A stretch of 28,639 nt of DNA from positions 1-28,639 of the forward strand of contig CAYWUK010000001.1 in assembly GCA_964461475.1 (NCBI GenBank), in the 5' to 3' direction. Shown one piece after another: positions 3,278 to 28,639 of this stretch (the first letter of the stretch is position 1; every line of letters begins with the position of its first letter). The position numbers and the translations under genes were made by a program. The notes beneath the pieces are model-generated. The model was not told the DNA's origin, did no database searches, and saw only the letters and a program-made list of their open reading frames with translations. This DNA comes from an uncultured Dehalococcoidaceae bacterium (GTDB lineage Bacteria > Chloroflexota > Dehalococcoidia > Dehalococcoidales > RBG-16-60-22).

Positions 3278-4339
3278 TTACTTTGCTAGCTTCTCAAGGT
3301 AGCTTTTATCAACGAACCTGCGAAATGTAGCGATGCCCTCCTCAATTCTTCTCCCCTTTACGCTGACGCGGTGGACTGCCGACTCCATCTTATTGACCAC
3401 GGTCATGGTATCATCGCGGACAACCATCAGCGGTATCTTCTTGTCCTGGGCAGCGCTTATGATGGAGCTGTTGGGGTAAAGGCCTCCGGTGAGTATGATG
3501 ACCTTGGTCGGCGTCTCCAGGGCGGCGAGCTGGATATCGGAGCGGTCGCCGCCGGTTATCACCGCCTTGTTCGCCTGGGAGCGGAAGTACTTCAGGGCGC
3601 CCTCGACGTTCATGGCGCCGACCACCAGGCTTTCCACAATCTCCTCCCCTTTATCTTCGCAGCAGAGAATCTCGCCGCCGAGTATCTCCTTCATCTCGGC
3701 CACGCTCAGCGAGCTCAGCTTTAGGTTTGTCGGTATCAGCCCCCAGACCTTTATCCCCTTGTTTTCCAGGAAGGGCAGGAAATACTTTCTGGTGAGGTCT
3801 ATGCTTTCCTGGGGAAGATGGTTCAAGATGACCCCGACCAGCTTCTCCTTGAGGCGGTCTTGCATGGCGACTATTGTATCCAGGTTCACCTCGCCGAAGG
3901 CGGGGGAATCAACCAGGACGGCGGACATGTTGAATTTTTCAATGAAGTGTATGTTTGAGGCGCCTACGGAAAAGCCGTCAAACAGGTCCTGCCCACCCCC
4001 GACCAGCACCGCGTCTTTGCCCTTCTTCAGCTGCTCATAGGCGTTATATATCCTGTCTCCCGCCTCGCTGAGCTTGTTGCCGCTGGTGAGTTTGATATAA
4101 TCAGTATAATCAAGGTAGAATGGGCACATAAGGGATGGATCATCTTCTAACGAAAAGCGTTCTTTAATCAGCAGCACATCTTCTTCAACCTTTTCGTCAT
4201 CTTTCATGGCGAAGTTCTTGCCTACGGGCTTGAAGTAGCCCACCTTCAGCCCTTTGCCCTTCCAGAAATCCAGAATGCCGAGCGCCACCATGGTCTTGCC
4301 GGCATATTTTGTTGTTGAGCCTACAAATAGTTCTATCAT
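3278..4339 (-). CDS. Phosphotransacetylase-family protein containing only the BioD-like N-terminal and DRTGG domains (no PTA catalytic domain)
   Basis: N-terminal STTKYAGKT P-loop-like motif and GYFKPVG; C-terminal VITGGDRSDIQLAALE and IILTGG (DRTGG domain); at 353 aa it is too short to include a PTA_PTB domain. Confidence 0.85.
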   Translation of the reverse strand: MIELFVGSTTKYAGKTMVALGILDFWKGKGLKVGYFKPVGKNFAMKDDEKVEEDVLLIKERFSLEDDPSLMCPFYLDYTDYIKLTSGNKLSEAGDRIYNAYEQLKKGKDAVLVGGGQDLFDGFSVGASNIHFIEKFNMSAVLVDSPAFGEVNLDTIVAMQDRLKEKLVGVILNHLPQESIDLTRKYFLPFLENKGIKVWGLIPTNLKLSSLSVAEMKEILGGEILCCEDKGEEIVESLVVGAMNVEGALKYFRSQANKAVITGGDRSDIQLAALETPTKVIILTGGLYPNSSIISAAQDKKIPLMVVRDDTMTVVNKMESAVHRVSVKGRRIEEGIATFRRFVDKSYLEKLAK

Positions 4340-6453
4340 CCCTGTTCCCCCCTTAATATCAGTCTTCCATCTATGGCCCAGACTCCCTCGCCCTTGTCTT
4401 TAACCATCAGCGGGTTTATCTCCATCTCCATGATTTGGGGAAACTTCTCCCCCAAGGTGGATATGGCGGCAATCACCTCATACAGGGCATCAAGGTCTTT
4501 CTCCTTCTCGCCTCTAACTCCGCTGAGAAGGGGGAATGATTTTATCCCCGATACCAGCTCCTTTATCTCCTTCATGCTCAGGGGAGTGAGGGCGAAGTTT
4601 ACGTCTTTGAGGACTTCAACGTATATGCCGCCCAGTCCGAACATCAGCAGCGGCCCGAACTGGGGGTCGCGGGAAAAGCCTACAATGACTTCCTTGCCTT
4701 CTTCAGCCATCTTCTGAACCGCTATCCCCGATATCGGCACCTGGGGCAGGAACCTTCTTACGTTGACCATTATCCCTTCAAAGGCCCGGGCCACCTCTCT
4801 GGCGTTTTTGAGGCCGACCCTGACGCCGCCCACATCCGTCTTATGCAGTATCTCTGTGGAATAGACCTTCATCACCACCGGGAAGCCCATCTTCTCGGCG
4901 GCGCTCACCGCCTCATCAGGCGTATTCGCCAGCTCCGTGGGCGGGGTGGGGATGTCGCAGAGTTTGAGCAGCTCCCTCGCCTCAAAGTCAACGAGCTTAA
5001 TCTTGTGTTCATCCGTCTTTGCTTTCAGCAGCTTCTCCAGCCTTTCTTCGCCTATCTTTTTCGTGTAAATTTCCGGCTTCTTCGTCTCCCTCCAGCGGCC
5101 ATATCTCGCCATAACCGCCATCGCCGTAACCGCCCGGTCCGGGAAGGCGATATTGGCCACCTTCCCCCTCTTGAATATGCTGTAGGCAGCGGAGACCCTG
5201 TCTTCGCCCATAAAAGAGGCGATGACCGATTTGGGGGAGGTGTAAGAGAGGCTTGATACTACTTTGGCCGTCTCTTCAATCTGGCTGTCCGCCTGGGGGG
5301 CTAAGATTACAATCAGGCCGTCCACCTCATCCGCCTGGATTACAAGCTCAATGGCCTGGCGGTAGCGCTCGTCGTCGGCATCGCCGAGGACATCCACCGG
5401 GTTATAGACCGAGGCTGCCGGGGGCAATATCTTCTTCAGGCTGCCGATGGTGGCCGGGTTGAATGAGGAGAGCCTGAGTTTTTCTTCGGAGGCCTTATCG
5501 GCGGCTATTATCCCCGGCCCACCGGCGTTGGTGACAATGGCGAGCCTGTTCCCTTTTGGCAGCGGCTGCGAGGAAAACACCTCCGCCCAGTCGAAGAGAT
5601 CCTCCACAGCCCTGGCCCTTATCACTCCTGCTTTCTGGAAGGCACATTCGTATGCCCGGTCCAGCCCGGACAGGGAGCCGGTATGGGAGGAGGCAGCCCG
5701 TGTCCCCTCGGCCGATACGCCCGACTTAAAGAGGATAACTGGCTTCTTCCGTGATACCTTCTCGGCGATATCTATGAACCGCTTGCCGTCAGTCACGCTC
5801 TCAATGTAGCCTATTATGAGCCTGGTATTAACATCATCGCCCAGTATCTCAAGAAAATGGGTCTCGTCAAGGTCCATCTTGTTGCCCATGCTGATGAACT
5901 TGGAGAAGCCCAGGTCTCGCCCGGCGGCGAAGTCAAGGATGGAGGTGACCATGGCGCCGGACTGAGATATGAAGCCTATTTGACCCTGCGCGGGCATGGT
6001 CTGGGCGAAAGATGCATTCAGGCTGGAATAGGTGTCAATGATGCCGAGGCAGTTGGGGCCGATTACCCTGATTTTGCCGCGGCACATCTCGGCCAGCTCC
6101 CTCTCCCGCTTCGCCCCCTCGCCGCCTATTTCCTTGAATCCAGCGCTGATGACGACGGCGCCTTTAATCCTTTTGTCTATCAGCTCTTTGAAGACGTTGA
6201 TGACCCTTTCCGCCGGGACTATCACCAGGGCGAGGTCAACATCATCCTGAATATCCCCCACGCTGCGGTATGTCTTCAGCCCGAGTATATTCTGTGCGCT
6301 CGGGTTTACCGGGTATATCCTGCCCTTGAAATTGTCATCTATCAGGTTTTTGAGCGTGTTGAAGCCGACCTTGCCCGGATGTTGGGAAGCCCCGATGACG
6401 GCGATGCTCCTCGGCCTGAAGAAAAAATCACATTTTCTGGCAGCAGGGCTCAC
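4336..6453 (-). CDS. Acetate/acyl-CoA ligase (ADP-forming), fused alpha-beta subunits
   Basis: PRSIAVIGAS CoA-binding domain, RVIGPNCLG, FISQSGA, SHTGSL (phospho-His), TNAGGPG, NPVDVLGDA, and a C-terminal ATP-grasp domain with HKTDVGGV and EINPL. GTG start with SD GGAGG; the stop overlaps the next ATG. Confidence 0.92.
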   Translation of the reverse strand: MSPAARKCDFFFRPRSIAVIGASQHPGKVGFNTLKNLIDDNFKGRIYPVNPSAQNILGLKTYRSVGDIQDDVDLALVIVPAERVINVFKELIDKRIKGAVVISAGFKEIGGEGAKRERELAEMCRGKIRVIGPNCLGIIDTYSSLNASFAQTMPAQGQIGFISQSGAMVTSILDFAAGRDLGFSKFISMGNKMDLDETHFLEILGDDVNTRLIIGYIESVTDGKRFIDIAEKVSRKKPVILFKSGVSAEGTRAASSHTGSLSGLDRAYECAFQKAGVIRARAVEDLFDWAEVFSSQPLPKGNRLAIVTNAGGPGIIAADKASEEKLRLSSFNPATIGSLKKILPPAASVYNPVDVLGDADDERYRQAIELVIQADEVDGLIVILAPQADSQIEETAKVVSSLSYTSPKSVIASFMGEDRVSAAYSIFKRGKVANIAFPDRAVTAMAVMARYGRWRETKKPEIYTKKIGEERLEKLLKAKTDEHKIKLVDFEARELLKLCDIPTPPTELANTPDEAVSAAEKMGFPVVMKVYSTEILHKTDVGGVRVGLKNAREVARAFEGIMVNVRRFLPQVPISGIAVQKMAEEGKEVIVGFSRDPQFGPLLMFGLGGIYVEVLKDVNFALTPLSMKEIKELVSGIKSFPLLSGVRGEKEKDLDALYEVIAAISTLGEKFPQIMEMEINPLMVKDKGEGVWAIDGRLILRGEQG

Positions 6454-20681: not shown

Positions 20682-20715
20682 AAAATAATAAAAGGCGTAG
20701 CTCAAACTACGCCTT
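20682..20715 (-). terminator. Probable intrinsic terminator after the 50-aa ORF
   Basis: Perfect 9-bp stem AAGGCGTAG/CTACGCCTT with a 6-nt loop, followed on the minus strand by TTATTATTTT. Confidence 0.65.
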
Positions 20716-20774: not shown

Positions 20775-20927
20775 TTAAATGCGCACGCCGACCTGGTTAG
20801 CGCTTTTTCTCAGCGACTTAGACTGCTTCCAGCTCTGGCGCAGGGCGCTGAATAACCCGGCCCAGATAAGCAGCGGGGCACAACAACCGGTAAGCAAAGC
20901 TAATGTACAGTTACGCAGTCGCTTCAC
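20775..20927 (-). CDS. Unannotated 50-aa small membrane protein or lipoprotein
   Basis: GTG start preceded by AAGGGGGT; translates to MKRLRNCTLALLTGCCAPLLIWAGLFSALRQSWKQSKSLRKSANQVGVRI; flanked by a candidate promoter and terminator; below the length cutoff of the ORF track. Confidence 0.65.
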   Translation of the reverse strand: MKRLRNCTLALLTGCCAPLLIWAGLFSALRQSWKQSKSLRKSANQVGVRI

Positions 20928-21081: not shown

Positions 21082-21115
21082 AAAAACAAAACTCTAACCT
21101 GAAGTTAGAGTTTTG
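21082..21115 (-). terminator. Probable intrinsic terminator of the ccm/kinase/regulator unit
   Basis: Perfect 12-bp stem CAAAACTCTAAC/GTTAGAGTTTTG with a 5-nt loop, followed on the minus strand by TTTTT; 50 nt after the regulator stop. Confidence 0.7.
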
Positions 21116-21164
21116 CCGGGCTTTATTAACGGGCGGTATGAGATTGTTCTTATTAATATTCGTT

Positions 21165-21806
21165 TTAGTTGCTAATCAGGCCTTTGTGCAGGGCGTATCT
21201 GATGAGCTGGGTGCGATTGTGTATGCCCAGCTTTTGCATTATCTTGGTGCGGTGGCCCAGGACGGTTTTTAGGGAAACGACGAGCTTGTCGGCAATCTCC
21301 CTGCTGGTGTGGCCCTCGGCGATTAGCTTAAGAATCTCCCTCTCCCTTGCCGTCAGGCGGTCATATGGCTCTTGTTTGGCCATGCGCAGGTAGTCCTCAA
21401 TGAGGGTTGTGGTTGCTGAGGGGTATAAGAAGGAGCCGCCTTTGTGCACGGCGCGTATCGCCGATACCAGTTCCGAAGCCAGCGCCCGCTTGGATACGTA
21501 TCCAGCAACTCCTACCTTGATGGCGGATAATACGTATTCCCGGTTGTCGTGTTGGGTCAATACCAGTATCTTCACCCTGGTATTTTTCTTCTTTATGCGG
21601 CGTGCAGCTTCCAGGCCGTCCATGCCGGGCATGGCTATGTCCATTATGATAACATCAGGGTCAAGCTCCTGTGCCTTCTCAATGGCCTCATTTCCTTCCG
21701 ATGCCTCGCCTATTATCTCAATGTCGTCCTGGGGCTCTAGCAGGGCGCGGATGCCCTCTCTCATCATGGCGTGGTCATCTACAATCATTATCTTAATCTT
21801 ATCCAT
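21165..21806 (-). CDS. NarL/LuxR-family response regulator
   Basis: IMIVDDH, IMDIAMPGMDG, LVLTQH, LTAREREILKLIAEG, SLKTVLGHRTKIMQKL. The ATG overlaps the kinase stop by 8 nt. Confidence 0.95.
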   Translation of the reverse strand: MDKIKIMIVDDHAMMREGIRALLEPQDDIEIIGEASEGNEAIEKAQELDPDVIIMDIAMPGMDGLEAARRIKKKNTRVKILVLTQHDNREYVLSAIKVGVAGYVSKRALASELVSAIRAVHKGGSFLYPSATTTLIEDYLRMAKQEPYDRLTAREREILKLIAEGHTSREIADKLVVSLKTVLGHRTKIMQKLGIHNRTQLIRYALHKGLISN

Positions 21807-24117
21807 TGGCCCCCTCCTTTTTTAATGGGATTTCAATGACAATCTTCGTGCCAGCGCCTGCGGGGCGCGATTTAATGTTCATGGTGCCGTTCAGGATTTC
21901 CACCCTCTCCTTCATGCCGAGGAGCCCCAGGCCACGTGGCCTCTCCTTTGAGCTTATCGCTTCCTGGACATCGAAGCCGATGCCGTCATCCTTAACCTGT
22001 ATGCTGATGGTGCCCTTTTTAAAGCGTAAGCTTATATCGGCTTTCCTGGCATGGGCATGTTTGGTGATGTTGCTGGTTGCTTCCTGGACGACGCGGAACA
22101 GGGTTGCCTCTATCTGCGGGGGCAACCTTTCCTCCTGCCCTGACGTTTTGAAATTCACCTTTATACCGGTGGGGCGCAGGCTCTCCTCAAGCTGCGACCT
22201 CACCGCAGCGACAAGCCCCATATCATCAAGCAGGCTGGGACGAAGTTCATATATCATCCTGTGTATCTCGTCCAGGATGCGGATGGATAAGTCCTGTGCC
22301 CTTTGCAATATGTCCTTAGCCTTCTCTTTATTGTCCGGCAGCAAATTTGATGCTGCGGCGAGGTTGGCGGTGAGGCTTGCCAGCACCTGGCTCGTTTCGT
22401 CATGCAGCTCGCGGGCTATCCTCTTCCTTTCTTCCTCCTGGATGGAGAATATCTCCCGCAGCAGTTCGCCCCGAACCTCATCCTTGCGCTGCACTTCCTG
22501 GTGCAGCCTGGCGTTTTCTACGGCGTTGGCTATCTGCCTGGCGATTCCATGCAGAAGGCGCACTTCTTCCGGCGAGAATTTGCAGGCCTGATGGCTGGCA
22601 ATGTTGAGCACGCCGAGGATTTTCCCCTTGGAGCGCAGGGGGATGCTGACAAATGCCCGCAGCCTTTCGGCGGAGATTAGGTCGGGGTGGGCAGCGCGGC
22701 GGTCGGCTGAAATATCTTCGAGCAGTATAGCCTCTCCGGTCTGGGCTACCTTTCCTGCTATGCCCTCGCCTAAGTGTAACCTCATATTTCGAGTGTATTT
22801 CTGCGAGAGTCCGCGGTGAACGCGGTAACTCAGAACCTGTTTTTCTTCATCCAGCAGGATTATGCCCCCGATGTCCTGGTTCGTTATCTCCAGGGTCTTA
22901 TCCAGAGCGCTGCCCAGCGCCGTATTCAGATTGGATAAATCGGCCAGGGAAGCAAGGGTCTCCGACACGGCGAGCAGGGAAGAGAGCTCTTTCGTCCTCT
23001 GCTCAAGCTCTCCGTAGGACTTTTTGAGCTTGGATCTCATGTCCTCAAAGGTCTGGGCCAGTATGCCCACCTCATCTTTCTGCGCGGTGTTTATCGGACT
23101 GGTCAGGTCTCCGTTAGCTATCCTTTTTGAGGCAGCGGTGAGCATCCTGATGCGCCCCAGGACGTCGCGCGTTATTATGACGATTATTACGAAGGCAATG
23201 GCGATTAAAGCAGCACCGAAGAAGAGCAGGTTCTGGCGTAACTCGTGAACGGGGGCAAGCGCCTCATTCTCAGATTGCCTGATGACGACCCCCCAATGAG
23301 CCTGGGAGAGGGGGACAAAGGCCAGCACATCCCTTCTTTCTACTTTTTGCACCGGCTCATGGCAGGTGTGGCACACGCCGCGAGTCGGCTCTCCGCGAGC
23401 AATCAACTCGGCAAAACGGCCGCTGTGGTCGCTCTTCTCAAATGGGGCCAGCGCGGGGCCCGGCTCCGTCCTGGCGACCACTATGCCGTTCTGGTCCACA
23501 ATCTCCGCGTAGCCCGTATGCCCCATTTTTATGGGGCGGACGAATCCACCAATGCTTGATTGAGCAATGTCAATAGCGGCGACAAGAGCGCCTTTGCTCT
23601 CCGCCCCTCCCTCTTTAACCGGGCTGATGATTAATACCACTGGCGTGTCGGTTGCTAGAGATAAAACGAGCCCGGATATAGTCTCTACGCCAGTTTTGAT
23701 AGTTTGCCCTATGCTGGGATAAAGGGACATGTCTTCACCTTCTAATTCCGGGGTGTCCGGTTCGCTCCATATAATTCGTTCCTGGTCATCAACGAGATAG
23801 ATGGCGTTGATATAAATTGACCACTCCCGATAATTATCTTCCAGGTTTTCTATCTGGGGTTTGATGTTTTCCTTTGCCTCGTTGATTTTTATGGCCTGGG
23901 CGGTGTCTCTGAGCTCAATGAGTGCGCGCCCCAGCGATTCATCCAGGTAGTCTGCCACCAGGTCGGCGGTGGTCAGCCGGTCCTGTAACATTGCCTCTGT
24001 AGCCTGGTTCACCGCTCGCATGCCTATGAAGCTGAACACGCCGACTGCCAGGACTAGCCCCAGCGCGGTGAGCAGGGCGATTTTCTTCACCAGCGTTAGC
24101 TTGGAAAGGAACTTCAT
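21799..24117 (-). CDS. Sensor histidine kinase: TM, dCache-like domain with CXXCH, TM, HAMP, GAF, HisKA_3, HATPase
   Basis: TM1 at about residues 13-32; Cache features IYLVDDQERII and GYAEIVDQNGIVVAR, then VCHTCHEP; TM2; HAMP (GDLTSPI...DEVGILAQTF); GAF (SIPLRSKGKILGVLNI); ERKRIARELHDE H-box; FRVVQEATSNITKHA, DDGIGF and GLGLLGMKER. Confidence 0.93.
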   Translation of the reverse strand: MKFLSKLTLVKKIALLTALGLVLAVGVFSFIGMRAVNQATEAMLQDRLTTADLVADYLDESLGRALIELRDTAQAIKINEAKENIKPQIENLEDNYREWSIYINAIYLVDDQERIIWSEPDTPELEGEDMSLYPSIGQTIKTGVETISGLVLSLATDTPVVLIISPVKEGGAESKGALVAAIDIAQSSIGGFVRPIKMGHTGYAEIVDQNGIVVARTEPGPALAPFEKSDHSGRFAELIARGEPTRGVCHTCHEPVQKVERRDVLAFVPLSQAHWGVVIRQSENEALAPVHELRQNLLFFGAALIAIAFVIIVIITRDVLGRIRMLTAASKRIANGDLTSPINTAQKDEVGILAQTFEDMRSKLKKSYGELEQRTKELSSLLAVSETLASLADLSNLNTALGSALDKTLEITNQDIGGIILLDEEKQVLSYRVHRGLSQKYTRNMRLHLGEGIAGKVAQTGEAILLEDISADRRAAHPDLISAERLRAFVSIPLRSKGKILGVLNIASHQACKFSPEEVRLLHGIARQIANAVENARLHQEVQRKDEVRGELLREIFSIQEEERKRIARELHDETSQVLASLTANLAAASNLLPDNKEKAKDILQRAQDLSIRILDEIHRMIYELRPSLLDDMGLVAAVRSQLEESLRPTGIKVNFKTSGQEERLPPQIEATLFRVVQEATSNITKHAHARKADISLRFKKGTISIQVKDDGIGFDVQEAISSKERPRGLGLLGMKERVEILNGTMNIKSRPAGAGTKIVIEIPLKKEGANG

Positions 24118-24217
24118 CCCTGGACTCCCTCAGGCGTAGGGCCTTCCTGCTGGCTGAAATAAAGAGGCGCTGCCCATGGGTTTTTATTTCACCTCCGTAT
24201 TTAATAGCCTGTTTCCC

Positions 24218-24370
24218 TCAAAATTCAATGCCCTTTTTCTTAAGGGCGTCTTTTAGCGAGTTGATTTCGCGTCGGAGCCTGCGCTGCCTGTTGAACAGGG
24301 TGAGCACATAGCCGAAAAGCAGCGCCCATATAATGGTGTAGGCGGCAAATAAGTAGCCTGCGTTCTCCAT
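24218..24370 (-). CDS. ccmD: Heme exporter protein D (CcmD-family), 50 aa, missed by the ORF track
   Basis: MENAGYLFAAYTIIWALLFGYVLTLFNRQRRLRREINSLKDALKKKGIEF: a YLxxAY TM helix plus a basic coiled coil; SD GAGGAG; directly downstream of ccmC. Confidence 0.85.
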   Translation of the reverse strand: MENAGYLFAAYTIIWALLFGYVLTLFNRQRRLRREINSLKDALKKKGIEF

Positions 24371-24396
24371 ATCGTCACTCTCCTCAGTTTGATGCT

Positions 24397-25074
24397 TTAT
24401 TGAGTGTCCAATTCCTTAATGATATCTACTTCAATTTCGTCGTGCTTCAGCGAAATCCTTTGCGTCAGCAGAAGCAAATACAATGTGGTGAAGGCGGCAA
24501 GACAGACCAGCAGCGTGAGCAGCATGGAGGGGGCCAGGCCACCCTGGAAGATGAGCGGGCCGGGGTGTTGCGTCCGCCACAGGGTGATTGCCAGGGCGAC
24601 GATGGGGACATCGATGAAGCCGACTATGCCCACCACTGCGGCAAAGCGCGCCCCCCTGGACTCCTCCGCAGCGAAGGAGCGTACCATGATATAGGCTATG
24701 TAGATGAGCCAGAGGACGAGCGCCGTGGTGAGCCTTGGTTCCCATACCCACCATACCCCCCAGATTGGTTTGGCCCAGATGGAGCCCGTTATCAGTACAA
24801 GCGTGGTGAAGACGATGCCCACCTCGGCCGATGAGCTGGCTATGATGTCCCATTTGCTGTCCCGTTTCCAGAGGTACAAAACGCTGCCCAGGAATACGTG
24901 AAAGAAGGCCAGGAAGGCCACCCAGGCCACCGGCACATGGAAATAGAATATCCGCTGCACGATGCCCATGGTCTGCTCGGTGGGGACCCACAGGAACACC
25001 AGGTAGAGGGCTGCTGCAAACAGGATGAAGTTCAATAACACCAGCCCCTTTTTTATTAAGCCGCTATCTTTCAT
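24397..25074 (-). CDS. ccmC: Heme exporter protein C (WWD family)
   Basis: RIFYFHVP, ITGSIWAKPIWGVWWVWEPRLT (WWD motif) and RTQHP. Confidence 0.93.
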   Translation of the reverse strand: MKDSGLIKKGLVLLNFILFAAALYLVFLWVPTEQTMGIVQRIFYFHVPVAWVAFLAFFHVFLGSVLYLWKRDSKWDIIASSSAEVGIVFTTLVLITGSIWAKPIWGVWWVWEPRLTTALVLWLIYIAYIMVRSFAAEESRGARFAAVVGIVGFIDVPIVALAITLWRTQHPGPLIFQGGLAPSMLLTLLVCLAAFTTLYLLLLTQRISLKHDEIEVDIIKELDTQ

Positions 25075-25083
25075 GTTTCTCCT

Positions 25084-25755
25084 CTATTCTTCAATGACGA
25101 AGGAAAATACTATAAGCGATACCACAAGAAAAATGGCGTCAAAAGCCACTATTATCTGGAGCCAGGGTGCCAGGCCAGACCAGGATGCTCCGGAGAGGGC
25201 GGCCGCGGAAGCCTTGACCGCAGCGATGATTATGGGGACAACAATGGGCAGGAAAAGGATGGGCAGCACCATCTCCCTCGCTTTGGTGTTTACGGCCAGG
25301 GCGGAGAACAGGGTGCCCACGGAGACGAAGCCAAGCGTGGCCAGGAATGTGACCAGGATAATCTGTGGTATGAGCACGGGCAGATTGAAGAGGAAAGCGA
25401 AGGCGGGCAGGGCTATCGCTTCAATGATTAGCATAAAGAGCAGGCTCCCGAGCATCTTGCCGGTGTAGATTACCTCCCGGCTTACCGGGCAGAGCATCAG
25501 CCCTTCCATGCAGCCCTGTTCCTTCTCCGGGACGAAGGAGCGGTTCAGGCTCAGCACTCCGGCGAAGGCGAAGGTCACCCACAGCATGCCCGGCCCCAGC
25601 AGCCCTGCCATCTCCTGTCCCGACTCAAAGGCAAAGTTGAAGATGACTATCACCAGCAGGGTGAAGACCAGCACCGAGAAGATAATCTCCCTGGTTCGCA
25701 TCTCAGAGATGATGTCTTTCCAGGTGATGGTCATGACCTTTTGCCAGAAATTCAT
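25084..25755 (-). CDS. ccmB: Heme exporter protein B
   Basis: WKDIISEMRTRE, LSLNRSFVPEKEQGCMEGL, LPILFLPIVVPIIIAAV. Confidence 0.93.
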   Translation of the reverse strand: MNFWQKVMTITWKDIISEMRTREIIFSVLVFTLLVIVIFNFAFESGQEMAGLLGPGMLWVTFAFAGVLSLNRSFVPEKEQGCMEGLMLCPVSREVIYTGKMLGSLLFMLIIEAIALPAFAFLFNLPVLIPQIILVTFLATLGFVSVGTLFSALAVNTKAREMVLPILFLPIVVPIIIAAVKASAAALSGASWSGLAPWLQIIVAFDAIFLVVSLIVFSFVIEE

Positions 25756-26483
25756 GCTTCCACCTTGGTGCTTTGGTTATAGGTGTTTTTCAGGGCGGCC
25801 AGGTCCAGCAGTTGGCTTGACCCCTGGTAAACGATTTTCCCCCTGTCCAGAATCAACAGGCGCTCGCCCAGCTCTAGCCCGCGCTCCAGGTTATGGGTAG
25901 TGAGGATGGTGGTTGTTTCCCCTTCTCTTTGCAGGGCCTCCCAGAGAATTGATATGGCCTGCTGGTCCAGCCCCGTTTCTGGCTCATCCAGCAGCATTAT
26001 GCTCGGCCTGTGCAGCAGGCAGCGGGCGATGGCCAGCCTCTGCTGCATGCCCCGGGAAAGGGTGCACACCCTGTCGTGAAGTCTGGGCGCCATCTCCACC
26101 ATCGTTGCCAGCTCGTGTATTCGCTCTTCGTACGCGGGCACATCATACATGCGGCTGTAGAATTTCAGGTTTTCATATGCGGTGAGGTTGCCGTAGAGGA
26201 AAGTCTGGTGGCTGACCACGCCGATTCTGCGCCGGACTGCCTCGGCATCCTTTTTGAGGTCCAGGCCGTCAATAGTGACCTTTCCCGATGTTGGGTTCAT
26301 AATGGTGGCCAGCAGCTTGATTAAGGTGGTCTTGCCCGCACCGTTGGGGCCGAAGATTACCAGGGACTCGCCCCGTCTTACCTCCAGGTCTATCCCCCTC
26401 AGAGCGGGGCGATTGCCGAAGGACTTGGTTAGGCCCTCGATTTCGATTGCCAGGGCCTGAGCAGCGGAGGCGGATTTTTCCAT
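25752..26483 (-). CDS. ccmA: Heme ABC exporter ATP-binding protein
   Basis: GPNGAGKTT, LSRGMQQRL and LLDEPETGLD; ATGA overlap with ccmB. Confidence 0.9.
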   Translation of the reverse strand: MEKSASAAQALAIEIEGLTKSFGNRPALRGIDLEVRRGESLVIFGPNGAGKTTLIKLLATIMNPTSGKVTIDGLDLKKDAEAVRRRIGVVSHQTFLYGNLTAYENLKFYSRMYDVPAYEERIHELATMVEMAPRLHDRVCTLSRGMQQRLAIARCLLHRPSIMLLDEPETGLDQQAISILWEALQREGETTTILTTHNLERGLELGERLLILDRGKIVYQGSSQLLDLAALKNTYNQSTKVEA

Positions 26484-26495
26484 TATGCTCTGTTA

Positions 26496-27650
26496 CTATC
26501 CTCTTCTGGAGTTGATTAGCCTGACCAGCTGCGACTTCTTTTCGGCGCGCAACCTGTGGTATTCGTCTTCTTGAATTTTGCCTTCGGCGAAGGCATCGTC
26601 CAGCCCGGCAAGCTCAGCGAGCAATCTCTGGCTTTCCTCTTCTGGTCCAAGTTCGCCTCCGGCTTCTACCGGCCGGGCTTGCCTCTTCCTCAGCAGGAAA
26701 TAGCCCGCGCCAAAAACGGCAGCGAGCAGCACCAGCGTAAGGGCTGTCCAGGTGACGGCTCCTGGCCCGCTGCCTCCGGGCAGGTCGGAGAGTTTTACCA
26801 CTATAGCCTCGCCGGGGGCAATGCCAGTTGTGGAAAGGTGAGTGAAGAGGTTACTCTGGATGGTCAGCGTCTCTCCTGCGTCCATCTGTTCGCTGGCGAC
26901 TTTGACCGTGTCCCCCTGTACCAGAAGGTCGTAATTCATTGTGGGGTAATTAGCGTGATAGATGAAGCTATAAGCCCCTGAGCTGTAGGGGGCCTGGTAG
27001 GAGTAAGCCACCTCCCTGGAGCCGGGCAGGAGCGGCATGCCCTCGGTGAAACCATCCGCCTGACCATAAATGCAGCAATCCATCAGGCCCATGGTAGGTT
27101 GAAATCCAGTAGCCCCCTGCGGCAGGAAGAATCTGATGGTATCCTTGTCATCTTCGGCGCTCGGCCCTATGTAAGCACGGTCGGCTGTGTTGACGAACAT
27201 GGCGTATTCATTCACCTCAAGCTCGCCTTCGCCTATGTATATTACGGTGTGGGCTGACATAACGCTGACGGCATCTTTGCTGGTAGTGGAATCATAGACG
27301 ACGACCTCGGCAAATTTGCTGGTGGTGCTATCATCAAAGCTGAGCGCTTCGCTGTCATAACTCGCGTTCTGGAAGTCGATGGCCGCCTGGTAGCTGTAAC
27401 CTGGCTCGGTTGACAGGCCTGCAAAAGTGAAATAGCCTTCGCCGTCAGTCCTGGTGGTAGCTGAGTCCACCTCTGCGCCATTCAGGGAGGTCTTGAGGGT
27501 TATTTCCTGGTCGGCCACGCTGCTGCCATCCGCAGTCTTGTTTACAACGAGTCCATCTATTACGCCATTGCCCGGCTCGGCGGCTATGGCAGAGGCCGCT
27601 GGACTGAGTGTGATGGCCAATATTATTAATAAGGCAATGCGTTTGAACAT
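26496..27650 (-). CDS. Ccm-associated hypothetical membrane protein (signal peptide, beta-sandwich ectodomain, TM, CcmI-like helical tail)
   Basis: Signal peptide MFKRIALLIILAITLSPAASAIA; carboxypeptidase-regulatory-like start (TRTDGEGYFTFAGL); TM at about residues 300-322; tail LAELAGLDDAFAEGKIQEDEYHRLR. Confidence 0.75.
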   Translation of the reverse strand: MFKRIALLIILAITLSPAASAIAAEPGNGVIDGLVVNKTADGSSVADQEITLKTSLNGAEVDSATTRTDGEGYFTFAGLSTEPGYSYQAAIDFQNASYDSEALSFDDSTTSKFAEVVVYDSTTSKDAVSVMSAHTVIYIGEGELEVNEYAMFVNTADRAYIGPSAEDDKDTIRFFLPQGATGFQPTMGLMDCCIYGQADGFTEGMPLLPGSREVAYSYQAPYSSGAYSFIYHANYPTMNYDLLVQGDTVKVASEQMDAGETLTIQSNLFTHLSTTGIAPGEAIVVKLSDLPGGSGPGAVTWTALTLVLLAAVFGAGYFLLRKRQARPVEAGGELGPEEESQRLLAELAGLDDAFAEGKIQEDEYHRLRAEKKSQLVRLINSRRG

Positions 27651-27659
27651 CTTTCTCCC

Positions 27660-28073
27660 TCAGCTCAGTTTGGCGCCACATTGAGAGCAGAAGCGGTCGC
27701 CCGCCTGATATCTTGCCCCGCATTGGGGGCAGAACTGCTTTTTGACCTGGCGCAGCTTCAGGACGTGGCTCTCTATTTCATCTTCAATATTTTGCGGGCT
27801 TTCCTTCAGGCCATCCATGTCTTTGAGAATGGAGACGGCCTTGCCCTTGTACCGCGCCTGCAGGTCGCGATAGTCCTCCTCCGAAAGGATGCCCGACTGG
27901 AAGTCAAATTCCAGCTCTTTGAGCATGGAGTAGGTAGTATCGCGTCTGGCGTGCAGTTCCTGCAATTCATCGCCCTCGGTTGAATCGACGCTATGCGGCC
28001 TTTGCCTGAAAAACGGGTAGATGATGAAAGCAAAAGCCAGTATGGTCAATAATATGGCAAAAAATACGGTCAC
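27660..28073 (-). CDS. CcmI-like N-terminal membrane protein with a C-terminal double zinc ribbon
   Basis: TM ending YPF, then LKELEFDFQSGILSEEDYRDL (CcmI-type helical hairpin), then CPQCG...FCSQCG. Confidence 0.75.
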   Translation of the reverse strand: MTVFFAILLTILAFAFIIYPFFRQRPHSVDSTEGDELQELHARRDTTYSMLKELEFDFQSGILSEEDYRDLQARYKGKAVSILKDMDGLKESPQNIEDEIESHVLKLRQVKKQFCPQCGARYQAGDRFCSQCGAKLS

Positions 28074-28552
28074 CGGAAGCTCCTTTCAGAAAACTCGGAC
28101 AGCTCCTTTTCAAGTCGGCGGCAGTATTCATCGTCTTCGTCAATCTTAATCGCGGACTCAAGCCTTCCCCTCTTCAGCCACCCCTTTATGGCGAGGTAGA
28201 TTATCCCTCCGCCAAAAATCAGCGCCACAAAGGGCATAATCCAGGCCATCAGGTTGAAACCTTTCTTGGGAGGCGCGGCCAGCACCTGCTCTCCGTAGCT
28301 GGCGACGAAGGACTGGATAATCTGTTCCTCTGATTGGCCCTGCTCCAGGTCCTGGTTTATCAGGGCGGTCATCGTCTCGCGCGTGCCACATTCGGCGTGG
28401 CTGCAATTGAGCAGGACGGAGTTGCAGCCGCACTGGCAGATAAGTTGTTTGGAGATGTCGCTTACTGTGGCGGCATCGGCCCGGGTGGGGAATAGGGAAA
28501 GTATAGCCAGCGCCAGGATTATGCTGAAATTCAGTTTTAATCGCATTTTCAT
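28070..28552 (-). CDS. ccmH: Cytochrome c biogenesis protein CcmH/CcmL-like
   Basis: Signal peptide, LICQCGC, GQSEEQIIQSFVASYGEQVLAAPPKKGFNLMAWIMP, then a TM helix. The start may be 28552 or 28546. Confidence 0.85.
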   Translation of the reverse strand: MKMRLKLNFSIILALAILSLFPTRADAATVSDISKQLICQCGCNSVLLNCSHAECGTRETMTALINQDLEQGQSEEQIIQSFVASYGEQVLAAPPKKGFNLMAWIMPFVALIFGGGIIYLAIKGWLKRGRLESAIKIDEDDEYCRRLEKELSEFSERSFR

Positions 28553-28639
28553 CCTCCGCTTTTTGAGGCCTGCCTTAGCAGCGGCGGGTGCCGCCGGTCA
28601 GGCCACAGGGTAATCATTCCGCCCAGCAACAATATCGCG
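28549..28639 (-). CDS. ccmF: 3' end of probable heme lyase CcmF (partial)
   Basis: Reads AILLLGGMITLWPDRRHPPLLRQASKSGG*, which resembles the CcmF C-terminal GG.xxLWP helix; the TGA overlaps the ccmH ATG (ATGA). Confidence 0.6.
   Translation of the reverse strand, partial: AILLLGGMITLWPDRRHPPLLRQASKSGG

Follow-up and report, generated by a model that had tools for sequence, protein, structure and literature searches.

In the Hox system of Cupriavidus necator, the gene order on pHG1 runs from structural genes to hyp genes and then to hoxABCJ. The H2-sensing hydrogenase of this system, HoxBC, needs hypA1B1F1CDEX and signals via HoxJ and HoxA to the hydrogenase promoters (PMC10073562). We describe a related arrangement for heme c in a 28,639-nucleotide (nt) stretch of DNA from an uncultured Dehalococcoidaceae bacterium (GenBank assembly GCA_964461475.1, contig CAYWUK010000001.1, positions 1 to 28,639; this whole stretch is hereafter called the window). 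There, a cytochrome c maturation (ccm) gene cluster is followed on the same strand by genes for a sensor histidine kinase with a predicted heme c and for its NarL/FixJ-family response regulator. As in C. necator, a cofactor-bearing sensor would require the same maturation machinery as the enzymes under its control. Unlike Hox, which has a cytoplasmic NiFe sensor and an NtrC-type regulator, the system in the window combines a membrane kinase, a predicted external heme c, and a NarL-type regulator. Comparative evidence inclines us, if only slightly, to the reading that this two-component system serves as the local regulator for an operon of cytochrome and maturation genes. Both kinds of component are familiar, namely, two-component sensors based on heme and regulators whose genes end the operon under their control. 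The sequence-only reading had called the design unusual; this holds for the arrangement, since we found no published description of cytochrome, Ccm, and heme-kinase genes combined in this way, but not for its logic, for which HoxBC is a precedent.

The regulator side of the locus also has described counterparts. In Escherichia coli, ccm is cotranscribed with nap, and the sites of NarL consist of heptamers in inverted repeat. Activation of respiratory cytochrome c operons by NarL-family regulators is known from E. coli nap and nrf, via NarXL and NarQP (PMC12285233), and the locus in the window would likewise link a NarL-family regulator to respiratory cytochromes. NarX and NarQ, however, bind nitrate directly, contain no heme, and are encoded by genes unlinked to ccm, unlike the window kinase. 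Mycobacterial DosS/DosT-DosR is similar in pairing a heme-based GAF-HisKA_3 kinase with a NarL-family regulator, but the Dos kinases bind heme b noncovalently through a cytoplasmic GAF domain and do not need Ccm. The GAF domain of the window kinase matches that of DevS weakly (E of 1e-5).

On the sensor side, the nearest described domain is sCache_heme (DUF3365/Tll0287), an extracytoplasmic Cache domain with a CXXCH heme c that is fused to signaling modules, requires Ccm in E. coli, and reportedly occurs rarely or not at all in Chloroflexota (PMC12889525). The window kinase likewise has an extracytoplasmic Cache fold with CXXCH and attached signaling modules. The sCache_heme domain, in contrast, is a single Cache with a helical insertion and no reported link to ccm, whereas the motif in the window lies in the membrane-proximal module of a dCache_1 domain. 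Periplasmic c-type heme domains are also found in the Geobacter proteins GSU0582 and GSU0935 and in PAS-like sensors of Anaeromyxobacter (PMC3831638, PMC8396549). The hosts of these sensors are rich in multiheme cytochromes, but the sensors themselves are single PAS-like domains, mostly in chemoreceptors, and none was among the best 50 structural matches to the sensor model described below. The features of the kinase and regulator are as follows.

21799 to 24117, minus strand: sensor histidine kinase, 772 amino acids (aa), delineated from Pfam, hydropathy, and an AlphaFold model
23230 to 24009, minus strand: heme-dCache_1 sensor region, kinase residues 37 to 296
23359 to 23373, minus strand: CHTCH codons (C249-H-T-C-H253), motif predicted to bind heme c covalently within the membrane-proximal Cache module
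21165 to 21806, minus strand: NarL/FixJ-family response regulator with receiver (PF00072) and GerE helix-turn-helix (PF00196) domains

The kinase is composed, in order, of a membrane helix (residues 13 to 33), dCache_1, a second membrane helix (297 to 317), HAMP, GAF, HisKA_3, and HATPase. The extracytoplasmic domain of about 260 residues between the two helices belongs to dCache_1 (PF02743, 61.8 bits versus a cutoff of 45) and has a double-Cache fold in the AlphaFold model of the kinase (mean pLDDT of 80.8, built on 22 homologues). Foldseek comparison showed that the sensor model resembles PctA, KinD, DctB, and rpHK1S-Z16, with target-normalized TM-scores of 0.54 to 0.78; no heme protein was present among the best 50 structural matches. 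Identity with DUF3365/sCache_heme was rejected, as no match was obtained even at E values of up to 10 and the sensor is a double rather than a single Cache. CHTCH (residues 249 to 253) is located between the two membrane helices, as expected for an exported motif, and is the sole CXXCH in the window's reading frames of at least 100 codons. The kinase (PF07730 and PF02518) and the regulator together form a NarL/FixJ two-component pair, and their genes share 8 nt where the kinase frame ends and the regulator frame starts. Among solved structures, VraR, NarL, DesR, DevR, and ChrA are nearest to the regulator and about equally distant from it; assignment to a DosR, NarL, or VraR subfamily was therefore rejected, and only the family is claimed.

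Conservation of the heme motif extends well beyond the window. CHxCH is nearly invariant in close homologues and present in about 50 of 52 genomic homologues. A HMMER search of 1.8 billion representative proteins returned 641 relatives of the sensor at E below 1e-3, and C-H-x-C-H was found at the aligned position in 102 of the 133 top-listed representatives of at least 330 aa; the resulting figure of at least 102 motif carriers counts clusters at 50% identity. D230 and R280 covary with the motif across these 133 distant representatives. H250, next to the first cysteine, is 94% conserved. Distant members of the family are ordinary dCache receptors without a link to ccm. Thus, the kinase very probably carries covalent heme c and, therefore, very probably depends on a Ccm-type maturation system, as the sequence-only reading had proposed. 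By the same comparisons, dCache heme c sensors apparently represent a second Cache family with heme c, independent of sCache_heme.

The ccm genes immediately upstream of the kinase gene are listed below.

25752 to 26483, minus strand: ccmA, ABC ATPase (ABC_tran; TIGR01189, 129.9 bits versus a cutoff of 131.6)
25084 to 25755, minus strand: ccmB (PF03379, E of 2e-34)
24397 to 25074, minus strand: ccmC (PF01578; TIGR01191, E of 1e-40), with the Trp-rich motif WGVWWVWE
24218 to 24370, minus strand: ccmD, 50 aa (TIGR04391, 51.4 bits versus a cutoff of 24)
24118 to 24217, minus strand: ccmD-kinase spacer, 100 nt, with a GAGGGAG ribosome-binding site near the kinase start codon

With CcmABCD, the window contains the heme-handling module of a System I Ccm pathway, and the residues of the CcmC motif WGxxWxWE are invariant in the CcmC alignment. 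Ten consecutive minus-strand genes run from 28639 down to 21165 in the order ccmF (3' end), ccmH, a ccmI-like gene, a gene for a 384-aa protein, ccmABCD, kinase, and regulator. The cluster junctions measure, in gene order, -4, 9, 12, -4, 9, 26, 100, and -8 nt, which upholds the previously described order, with its overlaps and short gaps and with 100 nt as the largest gap.

This order recurs in other genomes. A scan with the sensor alignment, using one genome per species (GTDB), yielded 54 loci, nearly all in Dehalococcoidia or Chloroflexota metagenome-assembled genomes. We distinguish class A, in which the heme-dCache sensor is joined to HAMP-GAF-HisKA_3 and accompanied by a NarL-type regulator, as in the window, from class B, in which the sensor is joined to HAMP-GAF-HisKA. 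The class A pair lies directly after ccmD on the same strand in 19 of the 21 Dehalococcoidia loci with usable upstream context, and each of the 19 adjacencies comes from a different species-representative assembly. The arrangement is thus not limited to one genome, and because the same one-strand order is found in 19 different species-representative genomes, the recurrence of ccmABCD, kinase, and regulator is more than chance. Identity to the window in the conserved loci is 57 to 74% for CcmC and 50 to 68% for the sensor, and the genes downstream of the regulator vary from locus to locus.

The reverse test, a scan with the CcmC alignment, returned 80 further ccm clusters (CcmC identity of 43 to 75%) from Chloroflexota and other phyla. 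None of these 80 had a heme-dCache kinase after ccmD, and the downstream genes were mostly unrelated housekeeping genes. The link between kinase and ccm is therefore a trait of one Dehalococcoidia clade and not general to ccm clusters. Different HisKA_3 kinases were found nearby in 2 of the 80. At L059, a convergent kinase of a different type contains one CXXCH. At L066 (positions 3855 to 6129; Dehalococcoidia), a cytoplasmic PAS-GAF-HisKA_3 kinase without a heme motif and a NarL regulator 58% identical to that of the window directly follow ccmD; the transmitter-regulator pair can therefore stay with ccm after the heme sensor has been replaced.

Class B kinases are never adjacent to ccm. Their sensor domain is nonetheless 55 to 78% identical to that of class A and intermixed with it in the tree; mean sensor identity is 56% between classes versus 55% within class A. 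In three same-genome pairs (L001/L003, L008/L002, and L009/L005), the paralogous sensors (residues ~36 to 300) are 71 to 78% identical, at least as close as orthologues. This suggests domain exchange or gene conversion, with one cue feeding two outputs.

The partner that sensors of both classes share is found, in class A, upstream of the ccm genes. In relatives of the window cluster, the same strand continues upstream with ccmE and genes for a diheme lipoprotein, a large cytochrome of 8 to 10 hemes with MtrC/MtrF-like domains (MtrC/OmcA-like), a NapC/NirT-like pentaheme protein, a small membrane protein, and a cytochrome b561-like protein. This set resembles an extracellular electron transfer (EET) or periplasmic electron transfer module. 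In class A, the ccm genes are thus sandwiched between cytochromes and regulators. Genes with 4 to 10 heme motifs are neighbors of the sensor gene at no fewer than 12 of 21 class B loci and in several distant members. At L012, the sole class B locus read in detail, the kinase gene is followed by the gene for an OmpR-type regulator, by a hexaheme cytochrome gene, and by genes whose products were judged by eye to be NrfC-like and NrfD-like. Because class B and distant members without ccm still adjoin multiheme genes, the constant partner of the sensor family is a multiheme cytochrome module and not the maturation machinery as such. The idea that Ccm serves mainly to mature the sensors was rejected, since the relatives encode cytochromes with 2 to 10 hemes beside ccmE.

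A candidate operator was found in the same upstream region. Inverted-repeat (dyad) and k-mer enumeration over the intergenic regions of the clusters identified the palindrome GGGTAT-NN-ATACCC, whose exact form, GGGTATNNATACCC, occurs only twice in 785 kb, both times in the interval between the pentaheme gene and the large cytochrome gene. Close variants are present at the same place in five further loci (L039, L014, L031, L041, and L046), giving the consensus (A/G)GGTAT-NN-ATACC(C/T) with a conserved extra half-site, AGGGTR, about two helical turns upstream. The palindrome thereby lies upstream of the large cytochrome gene in 7 of the 9 class A loci that cover this region, and an eighth site is present at L005, in front of the NarL-type regulator gene located ahead of a class B kinase gene. 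The sites are as follows.

L008, 1226 to 1241: palindrome
L040, 2163 to 2178: palindrome
L039, 862 to 877: palindrome
L014, 147 to 162: palindrome
L031, 2117 to 2132: palindrome
L041, 2233 to 2248: palindrome
L046, 402 to 417: palindrome
L005, 9101 to 9116: palindrome

In leave-one-out scoring, every site outscored all but 0 to 26 of 1.58 million other positions. Inspection of the sequences by eye showed a TAnnnT hexamer 22 to 24 nt downstream of the palindrome, often after TGn; the center of the palindrome is about 31 nt upstream of this -10 hexamer of the large cytochrome gene. The spacing and the half-site point to an activator-dependent promoter. No site scoring like the eight clustered ones was found in the 80 ccm loci without a heme-dCache kinase, where the best site (15.5 bits, at L064) falls inside a ccmA coding match. 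The idea of an operator between ccmD and the kinase gene, or at any other place in the window, was rejected; enumeration gave only ccmD coding words and the palindrome of the cytochrome promoter.

Members of the NarL/FixJ family bind inverted repeats as dimers, and we infer that the regulator binds this palindrome. Read as GGGTA-N4-TACCC, it differs from the NarL 7-2-7 arrangement but shares its GGGxx-N4-xxCCC layout with the DosR box, GGGAC-TWWA-GTCCC. Because a conserved palindromic element lies at the multiheme promoter that heads the same cluster in relatives, feedback of the regulator on cytochrome genes is plausible. The earlier proposal of feedback on ccm or cytochrome genes thus gains ground for the cytochrome promoter of relatives, and no such element was seen in the window itself.

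The ccmD-kinase spacer measures 44 to 389 nt in the relatives and ends in a conserved AAGGAAG-type ribosome-binding site, and its sequence cannot be aligned across relatives. In the window, the 100-nt spacer contained no promoter-like match on the minus strand, no terminator-like site, and no unusually stable fold, and no operator-like site was found in the spacers of relatives. A conserved RNA structure or attenuator was rejected, as 16 spacers folded no better than shuffled sequences (z of -1.4 to +1.2). The terminator-like features of the cluster and a small gene downstream of the regulator are listed below.

24230 to 24247, minus strand: weak terminator-like hairpin with a 6-pair stem, within the ccmD 3' end, the sole earlier terminator-like site of the chain
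21085 to 21117, minus strand: intrinsic-terminator-like hairpin after the regulator gene, 15 pairs plus U run (ΔG of -17.3 kcal/mol)
20775 to 20927, minus strand: gene for a conserved 50-aa membrane peptide (VKRLRNCTLALLTGCCAPLLIWAG...), downstream of the regulator and past the first hairpin
20692 to 20715: strong terminator after the 50-aa peptide gene

The hairpin at 21085 to 21117 is the first convincing terminator on the minus strand, which bears out its previously assigned position after the regulator; the hairpin in ccmD was rejected as a terminator because its stem has only 6 pairs and is not conserved in relatives. Internal terminators in the clusters of relatives were likewise rejected. 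Terminator-like sites numbered 24 at L031 versus 16.0 ± 4.5 in shuffled sequence and 17 at L041 versus 14.4 ± 4.2, and none was at a conserved gene junction. Since these counts in two relatives' clusters are within about 2 standard deviations of shuffled sequence, transcriptional read-through from ccmD into the kinase gene is plausible. The lack of a terminator-like site in the ccmD-kinase spacer, where only the weak hairpin within ccmD is nearby, and the palindrome heading the clusters of relatives lend indirect support to a putative single, autoregulated transcript that would run from the cytochrome and ccm genes through the kinase and regulator genes. Homologues of the 50-aa peptide follow the regulator in five relatives (L004, E of 5e-11; L031; L041; L026; and L017; tblastn), and for this reason the peptide may be a third member of the signaling unit.

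Based on these observations, a working model of the local regulator can be proposed. The kinase would sense the extracytoplasmic redox or ligand state through heme c bound to CHTCH in the membrane-proximal half of dCache_1, and the signal would pass via HAMP, GAF, and HisKA_3 to the NarL-type regulator. A phosphorylated regulator dimer would then bind the conserved palindrome at the promoter of the large multiheme cytochrome gene and activate, rather than repress, this gene, with read-through into the ccm genes and into the regulator's own genes. The loop would rely on its own product, because the holo-sensor could form only if Ccm works. We regard this Ccm dependence as a probable consequence of the wiring and not as the sensed quantity.

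Several observations weigh against this model. At L010, the kinase gene follows a diheme cytochrome gene with no ccm genes between, and at L026 it lies beside a divergent tetraheme gene, with no ccm adjacent to the pair. The ccmD-kinase gap is always the widest of the chain, in the window and in all relatives, and comprises 389 AT-rich nt at L025, which makes a separate or additional weak kinase promoter possible, notably at L025. L033 and L038 cover the promoter region and have no palindrome, no operator-like site was found in the window at a matrix threshold of 12 bits, and another regulator could use the palindrome. Finally, since the window ends inside ccmF, the upstream part of the source genome's cluster lies outside the DNA analyzed, and its cytochrome genes and operator are presumed by homology.

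The sequence-only reading had proposed that the apo/holo state of the kinase could report heme supply or Ccm capacity as well as external redox, with feedback of the regulator on ccm or cytochrome genes. In such a self-monitoring circuit, the kinase's own apo/holo ratio would be the sensed quantity, and the regulator would tune ccm and cytochrome genes in response. The sensor is a predicted Ccm substrate, its gene directly follows ccmABCD on one strand in 19 genomes, translation of the regulator is coupled to that of the kinase, and the candidate operator heads the same cluster in relatives, all of which would suit self-monitoring. The comparative evidence nonetheless leans away from it, and no observation points to the apo/holo state or to heme supply as what the kinase senses. 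The same sensor is carried by class B kinases that have no link to ccm, and its high identity within three genomes points to a common external cue; the wider family, with the motif in 102 of 133 representatives, consists of ordinary dCache receptors; and at L066, where the kinase core and the regulator are still encoded after ccmD, the input is a cytoplasmic PAS domain that lacks a heme site. L010 lacks intervening ccm genes, the 80 other ccm clusters have no heme-dCache kinase (two have other HisKA_3 kinases nearby), and in the Hox analogue, the sensed signal is H2 and not maturation capacity. Because the sensor is shared with class B, has been swapped at L066, and is missing from the other ccm clusters, we argue that the cue is probably external and common to both kinase classes rather than an apo/holo ratio, and we consider self-monitoring very doubtful. 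A related but more specific version, in which the apo-kinase would act as a phosphatase and only the heme-loaded form would turn the cytochrome-ccm operon on, is marginally less doubtful and still improbable. If such a checkpoint existed, synthesis of large multiheme apoproteins would be gated by proven capacity for heme export and ligation, the circuit would form a hysteretic, self-committing switch, and the shared sensor on the second kinase class would extend the checkpoint to other cytochrome modules. Such a checkpoint would also count as a new case of a sensor served by the adjacent maturation pathway, the H2-sensing hydrogenase being the earlier one.

Alternatively, the gene order may have been inherited without regulatory coupling, either through shared ancestry within one Dehalococcoidia clade or because coexpression aids heme supply to the sensor, and the regulator's targets may lie elsewhere. 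All 19 cases fall within one class, the ccmD-kinase gap is the largest, most variable, and unconserved in sequence, the 80 other ccm clusters lack a heme-dCache kinase, and neither this gap nor the window contains an operator-like site. Against such passive linkage, the block survives at 50 to 70% protein identity while its downstream flanks change, every member of the wider sensor family examined with enough context has multiheme cytochrome genes nearby, and the palindrome co-occurs with clusters containing a NarL-type regulator gene; we therefore judge it improbable, to about the same degree as the checkpoint. Somewhat less remote, although still unlikely, is the same wiring with heme c sensing a diatomic gas such as nitric oxide (NO) or O2, so that the system would shut down or protect cytochrome synthesis under nitrosative or oxidative stress instead of reporting an electron acceptor or the redox state. 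Signaling sCache_heme domains behave as NO sensors (PMC12889525), nitrite and NO are reported to impair cytochrome c biosynthesis in Shewanella (PMC9697910), and the conserved H250 could be a displaceable ligand. However, the sensor domain is not DUF3365/sCache_heme, the palindrome is at the usual position for an activator, and no NO-detoxifying genes were seen in the clusters. Thus, local activation of the cytochrome-plus-maturation operon in response to an external redox or ligand cue is the reading that we prefer.

Dehalococcoidia are usually regarded as cytochrome-poor, and we found little literature on the regulation of cytochrome c maturation genes outside proteobacteria. The comparison defines a conserved and testable unit in uncultured members of this class, consisting of EET-like cytochromes and System I genes together with a predicted heme c dCache kinase, its NarL-type regulator, and a candidate operator. 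This unit offers a handle on when Dehalococcoidia turn on extracellular or periplasmic electron transfer. In addition, the comparison points to an apparently separate family of dCache sensors with a predicted heme c, with at least 102 motif-bearing clusters at 50% identity, in a phylum in which sCache_heme is reported to be rare.

The remaining genes of the chain lie at its upstream end.

28549 to 28639, minus strand: 3'-terminal 29 codons of ccmF with the stop codon, truncated at the window edge; the translation ends ...GGMITLWPDRRHPPLLRQASKSGG*
28070 to 28552, minus strand: CcmH-like protein, 160 aa (PF03918, E of 9e-20; weak NrfF match)
27660 to 28073, minus strand: 137-aa membrane protein with a C-terminal zinc ribbon (Zn_Ribbon_1), candidate analogue of the CcmI N-domain
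26496 to 27650, minus strand: 384-aa hypothetical protein with weak Big_1 and CarboxypepD_reg matches

For CcmE, CcmF, and CcmH, the window holds only the 29 ccmF codons and the CcmH homologue; ccmE would lie beyond the window edge, as L001 and L040 have a confirmed CcmE (PF03100) at the equivalent place. The translated ccmF tail is ...GGMITLWPDRR...*, and the stop of ccmF and the start of ccmH share 4 nt as ATGA. A full-length CcmF of 657 aa (PF16327 and PF01578) is encoded at the matching position in L001, and L040 also has a full-length ccmF there, as judged by position and length. At L041 (6033 to 6400), the ccmF position holds an 87-codon frame followed by a strong hairpin, for which a deletion, pseudogene formation, or an assembly error could account. 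The ccm clusters examined showed no ccmG, and Rfam and tRNA scans of the window returned nothing.

In place of the usual CxxC motif, the CcmH-like protein has CQCGC; it also has a signal peptide, a membrane helix at the C terminus, and an acidic tail. The 137-aa protein matches the CcmI N-domain model TIGR03142 weakly and under the cutoff (E of 5e-5), and the position of this zinc ribbon gene is kept in relatives; "ccmI-like" is thus a fair but unproven label. The 384-aa protein carries a signal peptide and a domain of the Ig-like or CarboxypepD_reg-like type, together with a membrane helix and a cytoplasmic tail, and an NCBIfam scan of it gave zero matches. In most related clusters, its gene separates the ccmI-like gene from ccmA (23 to 51% identity over at least 45% of the protein), and the protein is kept in ccm clusters of Chloroflexota and other phyla (23 to 36% identity in the latter). 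It may represent an undescribed Ccm accessory protein. Similar acidic cytoplasmic segments are present on the minus strand in CcmH (DEDDEYCRRLEKEL, 28070 to 28150), the 137-aa protein (SEEDYRDLQARY, 27800 to 27900), and the 384-aa protein (QEDEYHRLRAEK, 26496 to 26600), a resemblance that hints at a shared interaction motif.

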